A stretch of 4,042 nt of DNA from positions 1 through 4,042 of IMG/VR virus record IMGVR_UViG_2541047498_000022; one strand, given 5' to 3'. This stretch comes from a virus (lineage: Duplodnaviria; Heunggongvirae; Uroviricota; Caudoviricetes). Numbering within the stretch: the stretch's first letter is position 1; each line of letters opens with the position of its first letter. The position numbers and the translations under genes were made by a program. The notes beneath the pieces are model-generated. The model saw nothing but the letters and a program-made list of their open reading frames with translations. It did no database searches and was not told the origin of the DNA. This document shows, in pieces, positions 3,374-3,450 of this stretch.

Positions 3374-3450
3374 CCGCCATTAGCTCATCAGGAAAGAGCG
3401 CCAGCTTTCGAAGCTGGTTGCGCGGAGTTCGGGTCCCCGAAGGCGGTCCA
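3374..3450 (+). tRNA. tRNA-Arg-like, anticodon UCG (reads CGA/CGG); non-canonical T-arm, possibly a low-scoring or pseudo-tRNA
   Basis: Manual cloverleaf: acceptor CCGCCAT / AAGGCGG with one A·A mismatch at 6:67, D-stem GCTC / GAGC, a perfect anticodon stem CCAGC / GCTGG, and loop TTTCGAA (anticodon TCG at 3408-3410, with U33 and A37). The T-stem CGGAG / CCCCG has an A·C mismatch and the T-loop is TTCGGGT (G where A58 is normally conserved). Discriminator T plus encoded CCA (3448-3450). Confidence 0.6.

Follow-up and report, generated by a model that had tools for sequence, protein, structure and literature searches.

The stretch of DNA analysed here (the window; 4,042 nucleotides, positions 1 to 4,042 of virus record IMGVR_UViG_2541047498_000022) is the late-regulatory region of a lambdoid prophage, in which RusA, a Q antiterminator and a pR'-like region lie upstream of a cluster of three tRNA genes. 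The middle gene of this cluster, which is the subject of this analysis, occupies positions 3374-3450 of the plus strand. ARAGORN calls a tRNA-Arg with anticodon tcg at exactly these positions (77 nucleotides, nt), and the Rfam family RF00005 matches 3374-3447 with 42.9 bits (E = 5.8e-07), above its gathering score of 29. The match is far beyond chance. By sequence and gene order the feature is the known and annotated gene argN, second of the three genes in the ileZ-argN-argO operon, and is not new. The cluster ileZ(CAU)-argN(UCG)-argO(UCU), with argN in the middle, is part of the late region of its lambdoid prophage; argN is separated from ileZ by 7 nt and from argO by 13 nt. In lambdoid (Stx-type) prophages the place of this tRNA operon is after the late promoter and ahead of the lysis genes.

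The gene can be written as an almost complete cloverleaf. The acceptor strands CCGCCAT and AAGGCGG pair except for A6 (3379), which is mismatched with A67 (3441). The D-arm is GCTC-ATCAGGAAA-GAGC. The anticodon arm CCAGC-TTTCGAA-GCTGG is fully paired and has a standard loop of 7 nt with U33, the anticodon TCG at 3408-3410 and a purine at position 37; position 32 (3406) is a U in this allele. The variable loop is TTGCG, and in the T-arm CGGAG-TTCGGGT-CCCCG residue A52 (3426) is mismatched with C62 (3436), while position 58 (3432) is a G. The discriminator is T73 and the CCA end is encoded at 3448-3450. In all, 19 of the 21 expected helical pairs (7 + 4 + 5 + 5) form, the failing ones being A6·A67 and A52·C62. 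The elbow residues G18, G19, T54, T55 and C56 and the pair G53-C61 are all kept, with the replacement of A58 by G as the only exception. The sequence-only reading had described a perfect anticodon arm giving UCG, a T-loop TTCGGGT with G58 and mismatches A·C in the T-stem and A·A in the acceptor stem; each of these is borne out by the sequence, and ARAGORN, the check that it proposed, returned the call given above.

Position 58 is an A in 96 distinct tRNAs from outside the family that ARAGORN predicts in the loci of this analysis. The 12 seeming exceptions are likely to be register errors of fixed-offset parsing, and several of them are window-type argN genes that end in TCA. The identity set of E. 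coli arginyl-tRNA synthetase (ArgRS) consists of A20, C35 and G36 or U36, with a minor contribution from A or G at position 73. A20, C35 and G36 are present in argN, and the discriminator is U73, as throughout the argN family. The K-12 strain of E. coli is not known to possess a UCG isoacceptor (argQVYZ carry ACG, argX CCG, argU UCU and argW CCU).

In the record of Shiga-toxin phage 933W (GenBank AF125520 / NC_000924) ileZ (AUA), argN and argO (AGA) are annotated in the same order and with the same spacing, and the window aligns with this tRNA cluster along its full length. The 933W cluster lies downstream of Q, pR', qut and tR', preceded by pT and followed by a terminator and stx2. The two argN genes align without gaps and are identical at 69 of 77 positions (8/77 differ), while ileZ differs at 1/76 and argO at 1/77. 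They share the UCG anticodon, U73, the encoded CCA, the flanking ileZ and argO, a pT-like promoter and a terminator. Unlike the window gene, 933W argN is a canonical cloverleaf with acceptor strands CCGCCAT/ATGGCGG in which 6-67 is paired, a paired T-stem CGGGG/CCTCG and a T-loop TTCGAGT with A58. The window allele departs from it by A52, G58, A67 and U32 and also at three permissive positions, of which two lie in the D-loop and one in the variable loop. The operons also differ in their surroundings, that of the window being placed after an intact DNA methyltransferase gene and having STnc100 downstream instead of stx2. Phage Nil3 argN has A52 alone. The sole difference in argO between 933W (L002:4296-4372) and the window is at position 37 in the anticodon loop: 933W has a G there, and an A is shared by the window, Nil3 and the O157 prophage. 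The ileZ-argN-argO cluster is present in 2,953 of 5,426 complete E. coli genomes, in up to 13 copies per genome.

Relatives were collected from GTDB using one genome per species and only the 5' half of argN as anchor. This gave 48 parsable relatives from many Enterobacteriaceae, and A58 and U67 are found in all but one of them (L266), which is a further window-type copy. As all relatives that are not of the window type have A58 and U67, the G58 and A67 of the window are derived and belong to one terminal E. coli lineage. Across 46 distinct 77-nt alleles, 95% of the pair cells are paired, compared with 29-52% for slid controls; 6-67 is unpaired in 12 alleles and 52-62 in 13. Double-sided compensatory changes occur at 7-66, 27-43 and 30-40, and in each case they distinguish the UCG group from its Lys(UUU)/Arg(UCU) scaffold relatives. 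Within the UCG group none of the 46 alleles compensates for the lesions at 6-67 or 52-62, which are simply unpaired. The compensatory changes across related prophages that the sequence-only reading had proposed to look for are thus not found for the window lesions. The three odd features of the window gene are derived and uncompensated and, in comparison with functional homologues, they are structural disruptions of the kind by which a pseudogene is recognized.

The slot between ileZ and argO was sampled in an allele-agnostic manner from IMG/VR, where 118 loci were anchored on these two genes regardless of the middle gene. argN is fully canonical in 43 of these loci and defective or scrambled in 75, about two thirds; the middle gene is scrambled or deleted in 32. 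Counted as distinct alleles, 18 of the 22 with A58 are intact, while only 2 of the 16 with G58 are otherwise intact, and the extra lesions on G58 backgrounds fall into no fewer than three different sets. The polymorphism of the intact alleles is confined to permissive positions (17 and 20a in the D-loop, 32, 44, 47 and 57) and to changes from C-G to U·G at 27-43 and 51-63 that keep the pairing, so that canonical argN appears to be under constraint and hence functional. By the same comparison of alleles, the G58 branch looks released from constraint.

The proposal that all divergent sequences between ileZ and argO are decayed argN was rejected, as the commonest scrambled type (L011) looks recombinant. 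The diversity (pi) of the slot is 0.18, compared with 0.003 for ileZ; given the recombinant-like L011 type this overstates decay by point mutation, and allele-by-allele counts were used for this reason. A scrambled middle gene is present in about a quarter of the ileZ...argO loci (IMG/VR loci such as L011 and L039). In its 5' half it is similar to a short-loop class of tRNA-like genes from E. coli and Shigella (L227 type: GACG insertion, loop CAGGATT) and in its 3' half to G58 argN, the T-loop being a degenerate GCGGGT. The NCBI annotation pipeline PGAP gives it no tRNA annotation (only one tRNA-Arg at ~89% identity).

The window lineage was scanned with the two spacers as sole anchors, which yielded 115 loci. 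A52, G58 and A67 are present in nearly all of them, and two are recombinants with a canonical T-arm. The lineage segregates C32 and U32. The first C of CCA is changed to T in 21 loci, G50A breaks another T-stem pair in about six, G10T breaks the D-stem in four, and G59A and C13T also segregate. These variants fit relaxed constraint, but the test is weak given the clonal sampling, the small number of events and the lesions that the neighbouring genes also carry. argO is truncated in three loci of this lineage, in addition to those with a double lesion in argO that are described below.

The alleles can be arranged in a graded series according to their Rfam tRNA score. Canonical alleles reach 59.0 (L025), 58.2 (L037), 56.0 (L005) and 54.8 bits (933W), an allele with G58 only 54.0 bits and the Nil3 allele with A52 only 50.4 bits. 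The window allele follows with 42.9 bits and an allele with GG to AA in the acceptor stem and T-loop changes with 26.4 bits, and alleles in which the anticodon arm is scrambled or deleted have no Rfam tRNA match. In the same loci ileZ scores 70.9-72.5 bits and argO 65.8-71.4 bits. In the folding calculations the cloverleaf of the window allele has an energy of -20.0 kcal/mol, compared with a minimum free energy (MFE) of -29.0 kcal/mol (a gap of 9), while for a canonical allele the corresponding values are -31.3 and -32.8 kcal/mol (a gap of 1.5). Through A58G and U67A a hairpin UUCGG(54-58)/CCGAA(63-67) becomes possible, and it is the main element of the predicted MFE structure. A newly built fold was considered and rejected as chance: among 3,000 random triple mutants of the reconstructed ancestor, matched by class, the mean MFE is -28.8 kcal/mol and 49% reach -29.0 kcal/mol or less, so that the value of the window allele is an ordinary one.

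The exact window allele is present in 560 of the 5,426 complete E. coli genomes, where it is annotated as tRNA-Arg with no pseudogene flag, and has no match at all in 50,697 phage records. The 933W allele is found exactly in 275 of the same genomes, and the phage records contain 187 exact and 232 close copies of it, mostly in Stx2-converting phages. The allele was seen only in prophages resident in E. coli. In E. coli O157:H7 PV15-279 the prophage that holds it is clearly defective: it has two insertion sequences, its terminase, portal and J genes are frameshifted, and its genes for lysozyme and the major capsid protein are truncated.

From these data we consider it probable that the window argN is an impaired or dead copy of the known gene that is still transcribed together with its neighbours. 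The loss of function, the relaxed selection and the reason for it we infer from sequence comparison. The sequence-only reading had left a choice between a decaying pseudo-tRNA and a divergent but functional one. The first branch is favoured by the derived, uncompensated lesions, by the further lesions that G58 alleles gain, by the absence of the allele from all 50,697 phage records and by the defective PV15-279 prophage; the second is not. The window gene resembles the tRNA pseudogenes of cryptic prophages in its uncompensated stem lesions, in the loss of a universal tertiary nucleotide, in the segregation of extra lesions and in its pseudogene-rich prophage. Unlike degraded tRNA genes, it is full length, is found by all tRNA finders and has no pseudogene flag from PGAP.

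A canonical argN would be charged by ArgRS through A20, C35 and G36 and would read CGA and CGG as an isoacceptor that is new to the host. The three changes G52 to A (T-stem A·C), A58 to G (loss of the near-universal T54-A58 pair, which gives the T-loop elbow its shape) and U67 to A (acceptor A·A) would weaken the acceptor/T-arm helix and the elbow, which serve RNase P, EF-Tu, the CCA-adding and modification enzymes and the ribosome. The product would be a poorly folding tRNA that is weakly functional or non-functional. It would still be co-transcribed from pT or from the late promoter, and the gene may persist because it sits only 7 and 13 nt away from two far better conserved tRNA genes.

Selection on argN would be weak because the host already decodes its codons, CGA through an abundant ICG tRNA and CGG through a CCG tRNA, and because the prophage is defective (as seen in one genome) and translation of its late genes is no longer needed. 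For AUA, AGA and AGG the host has only single minor tRNAs. In a crude set of 957 prophage open reading frames (ORFs) the frequencies per 1000 codons are 9.7 for ATA, 6.9 for AGA, 5.3 for AGG, 5.5 for CGA and 12.2 for CGG. Relative to K-12 usage, ATA, AGA and AGG are enriched two- to four-fold and CGA and CGG about 1.5- to two-fold. Codon redundancy would in this way place argN under weaker selection than its neighbours. The contrast between argN and the better kept ileZ and argO fits selection for tRNAs that read AUA and AGA/AGG, and not for a redundant reader of CGA/CGG. In O157:H7 the copy number of argO tracks the AGA enrichment of acquired genes (PMC4539685).

Several observations weigh against an impaired or dead copy. 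The window allele passes the Rfam threshold and ARAGORN, and PGAP does not flag it. A·C mismatches in the T-stem have long been tolerated on this scaffold, as A51·C63 in tRNA-Lys(UUU) members and many others across genera, and a PGAP-annotated tRNA-Lys(UUU) relative scores 44.4 bits, about the level of the window allele. tRNA mutants in a single tertiary pair often stay substantially active in vitro. The absence from phage records is suggestive and not conclusive, as the collection is biased to Stx phages, and the identity of the allele in hundreds of genomes fits clonal hitchhiking but would also be compatible with retention by selection. In the window lineage ileZ carries G1A in 4 of the 115 loci, and in 15 of them argO has a double lesion, C61 to A, which breaks G53-C61, and C67 to G, which breaks 6-67. 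Because ileZ and argO are lesioned as well, the contrast between argN and its neighbours within this lineage is weak; the whole tRNA operon is eroding in the prophage lineage of the window. A literature search returned no expression, processing or charging data for any argN allele. The search also returned no paper that names ileZ with argN and argO, nor one on the expression of these tRNAs.

A rival reading is that of a divergent yet working tRNA-Arg(UCG) that is processed and charged and supplements the decoding of CGA and CGG in prophage and acquired genes. Besides passing both tRNA searches, the allele retains an intact anticodon arm, D-arm, G18G19, T54, T55, C56, A20/C35/G36 and CCA, it is common (560 genomes), T-stem A·C mismatches persist in apparently functional relatives such as the tRNA-Lys of 44.4 bits, and the use of CGG and CGA is somewhat raised in prophage ORFs. 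The three changes are nevertheless derived, uncompensated and limited to one terminal lineage, G58 abolishes a pair that is invariant in all other tRNAs examined, further lesions pile up on the background of the window allele, sequenced phages hold only the canonical allele and the predicted cloverleaf lies 9 kcal/mol above the MFE. A working tRNA would therefore seem possible but unlikely. In itself an impaired argN matters little, as the gene is a known and routinely annotated prophage tRNA gene. About two thirds of the argN slots in the IMG/VR sample are defective or scrambled and yet the exact window allele is annotated as tRNA-Arg in RefSeq; with defective copies annotated in this way, counts of prophage tRNA-Arg(UCG) overstate decoding capacity.

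The argN scaffold also occurs with other anticodons. It is found as Lys(UUU) in L124:1579-1655 (E. coli E1624), L233 and L246 and as Arg(UCU) in L125:1578-1654 and L220. These relatives lie in clusters of the form CAU / X / Thr(UGU) / Gly(UCC) and show the compensation at 7-66, 27-43 and 30-40 mentioned above. Phage 21 tRNA-Thr(UGU) rescues cells from P2 OLD, and a phage tRNA-Lys(UUU) rescues them from PARIS AriB (PMC12445682). By analogy, the CAU/X/Thr(UGU)/Gly(UCC) clusters may be counter-defence sets, as their Thr(UGU) and Lys(UUU) match the rescuing anticodons (PMC12445682).

This bears on the proposal of the sequence-only reading that the divergence of argN is adaptive, in that the changes in the T-arm and acceptor stem would allow escape from a tRNA-targeting nuclease or toxin of the host or of a rival phage while decoding is kept. 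Anti-defence tRNAs are real and include those of lambdoid phages (PMC12445682), and the occurrence of the argN scaffold with UUU and UCU anticodons beside Thr(UGU) is what a counter-defence set would have. Published evasion proceeds through changes in the anticodon loop or stem of phage tRNAs that share the targeted host anticodon (PMC10264068, PMC12445682), the anticodon-loop route being a predicted one (PMC10264068). With the known anti-defence tRNAs (phage 21/T5-like Thr(UGU) against P2 OLD, Lys(UUU) against PARIS and anticodon-loop variants against VapC, PrrC and colicins) argN has in common that it is a phage-borne tRNA of a lambdoid late region. Those tRNAs have a canonical body, an anticodon matching that of the host and an altered anticodon arm, whereas in the window argN the anticodon arm is canonical, the body is damaged and a host counterpart is lacking. 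Only C32/U32 is polymorphic in its anticodon arm, and its changes at 52, 58 and 67 affect positions that all tRNAs need. The host has no UCG tRNA to replace. A67 arose once and G58 spread by descent or recombination, without convergent recurrence; the allele is absent from active phages; and its state is not preserved, as more disruptive variants follow on its background. We know of no defence that is specific for the decoding of CGA/CGG. With the damage located in the T-arm and acceptor stem, adaptive escape appears most improbable.

A second set of scaffold relatives consists of tRNA-like genes with a short central loop. They number 99 members with 41 distinct central regions (loci L215-L332, outside the window; examples are L229 ~5436-5510, L222:1474-1548, L269 and L297) and are found in prophages of Enterobacter, Citrobacter, Buttiauxella, Dryocola, Salmonella, Klebsiella and others. 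They occupy the second slot, directly after the CAU tRNA and usually before Thr(UGU) and Gly(UCC). They share with argN the acceptor stem, D-arm, T-arm, N73-CCA and the position after the CAU tRNA, and differ from it by a D-loop of 8 nt, a variable loop of 4 nt, a T-loop TTCGAGG and a CAAC/GTTG stem closing a hypervariable loop of 5-6 nt in place of the standard 7-nt loop of the window argN. Within the family 7-66 covaries perfectly, and the central stem stays paired where its 5' strand has changed. ARAGORN gives two-base 'anticodons' for them. To judge from these predicted structures, they cannot decode like normal tRNAs. In Rfam they match no family beyond weak tRNA matches, and no prior description of them was found in our searches. 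A fixed cis target of the hypervariable loop, searched for as its reverse complement within 2.5 kilobases (kb), was rejected, with at most 3 of 25 loop types sharing a 20-nt bin in a test of low power. It is these short-loop relatives that may be worth a specialist's attention.

These genes raise the question of a role for argN other than decoding, either as an RNase P processing module that frees the 3' end of ileZ and the 5' end of argO or as a tRNA-like RNA. The scaffold is conserved in the 99 short-loop genes (7-66 covariation, T-arm and CCA), the spacers to the neighbouring tRNAs are merely 7 and 13 nt long and even scrambled alleles retain acceptor and T-arm halves. The damage in the window allele, however, falls on the acceptor stem and T-arm, which are the parts that RNase P uses, and the alternative hairpin is no more stable than those of random triple mutants (49% as low or lower). 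Alleles with a deleted or scrambled arm and TCA ends are moreover found beside apparently intact ileZ and argO. Such a role for the window gene would be quite improbable. Only a little less doubtful is the broader idea that argN could be the decoding-competent end of a second-slot family with a non-decoding job, for which the window allele could be kept. If true, candidate jobs for the family would be that of an RNase P-processed tRNA-like regulator or of a nuclease decoy beside the anti-OLD tRNA-Thr(UGU).

The features of the window are collected in the table below, the gene order being taken from the ORF list and from the RefSeq annotation of near-identical E. coli DNA.

Table. Features of the window, in order along the sequence.
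Feature	Position	Strand	Basis or remark
RusA gene, end	upstream of Q gene		
Q-family antiterminator	208-588		
CPBP-family membrane protease (274 amino acids)	734-1558		
pR'/qut/tR' homologue	1640-1722	+	alignment to annotated 933W region; putative function, by homology
tR' hairpin and T run	1700-1715	+	terminator scan
short TrmB-like ORF	1845-2207		frameshifted in relatives
DNA methyltransferase	2192-3250		
putative promoter pT	3253-3281	+	TTGCGG (3253-3258), 17-nt spacer, TATTAT (3276-3281)
ileZ, anticodon CAU	3291-3366	+	ARAGORN; Rfam 70.9 bits; 933W annotation
argN, tRNA-Arg(UCG)	3374-3450	+	ARAGORN; Rfam 42.9 bits
argO, tRNA-Arg(UCU), reads AGA/AGG	3464-3540	+	ARAGORN; Rfam 70.1 bits; 933W annotation
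intrinsic-terminator-like hairpin	3555-3580	+	GGCTCGC-TTTT-GCGGGCC, then T8; 7 pairs, 6 of them G-C
prophage small RNA STnc100	3617-3807	+	Rfam RF02076, 138 bits, full-length match

By its alignment with 933W, the pR'-qut-tR' homologue would put the tRNA operon inside the Q-dependent late transcription unit. It follows the CPBP protease gene (~1640-1722) and not Q directly, which suggests that about 1 kb including the CPBP ORF was inserted between Q and its site of action. The pT-like element lies 9 nt before ileZ and aligns with the element annotated as 'pT; putative tRNA promoter' in 933W (TTGCAG-17-TATTAT). A consensus promoter scan found none before ileZ, the first hexamer of pT matching at 3/6 positions, and its function as a promoter is a putative one that follows the annotation of the homologue. 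ileZ is named Met by ARAGORN, while PGAP and the 933W record have it as a tRNA-Ile that reads AUA. The terminator-like hairpin ends the tRNA operon at the same relative place as a 'possible rho-independent terminator' of the 933W record. In related loci STnc100 is followed on the opposite strand by the anti-small RNAs AgvB or AsxR; in the window neither is found with Rfam at E <= 1.

The whole window is not found as one piece in any of the complete E. coli genomes. The best single genomic place covers 79% of it at ~90% identity; taken as two pieces, the match covers 71% at 99.6%. Near-identical O157-type prophages have a helix-turn-helix gene in place of the methyltransferase. The window combines the same modules into another mosaic. 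In 933W a remnant of about 120 nt from the 3' end of the methyltransferase gene (L002:3970-4120, corresponding to 3140-3290 of the window) abuts pT and ileZ, so that the intact-methylase arrangement of the window looks ancestral. On this alignment the end of the methylase gene, pT and the tRNA genes look as if they move together as a single module.

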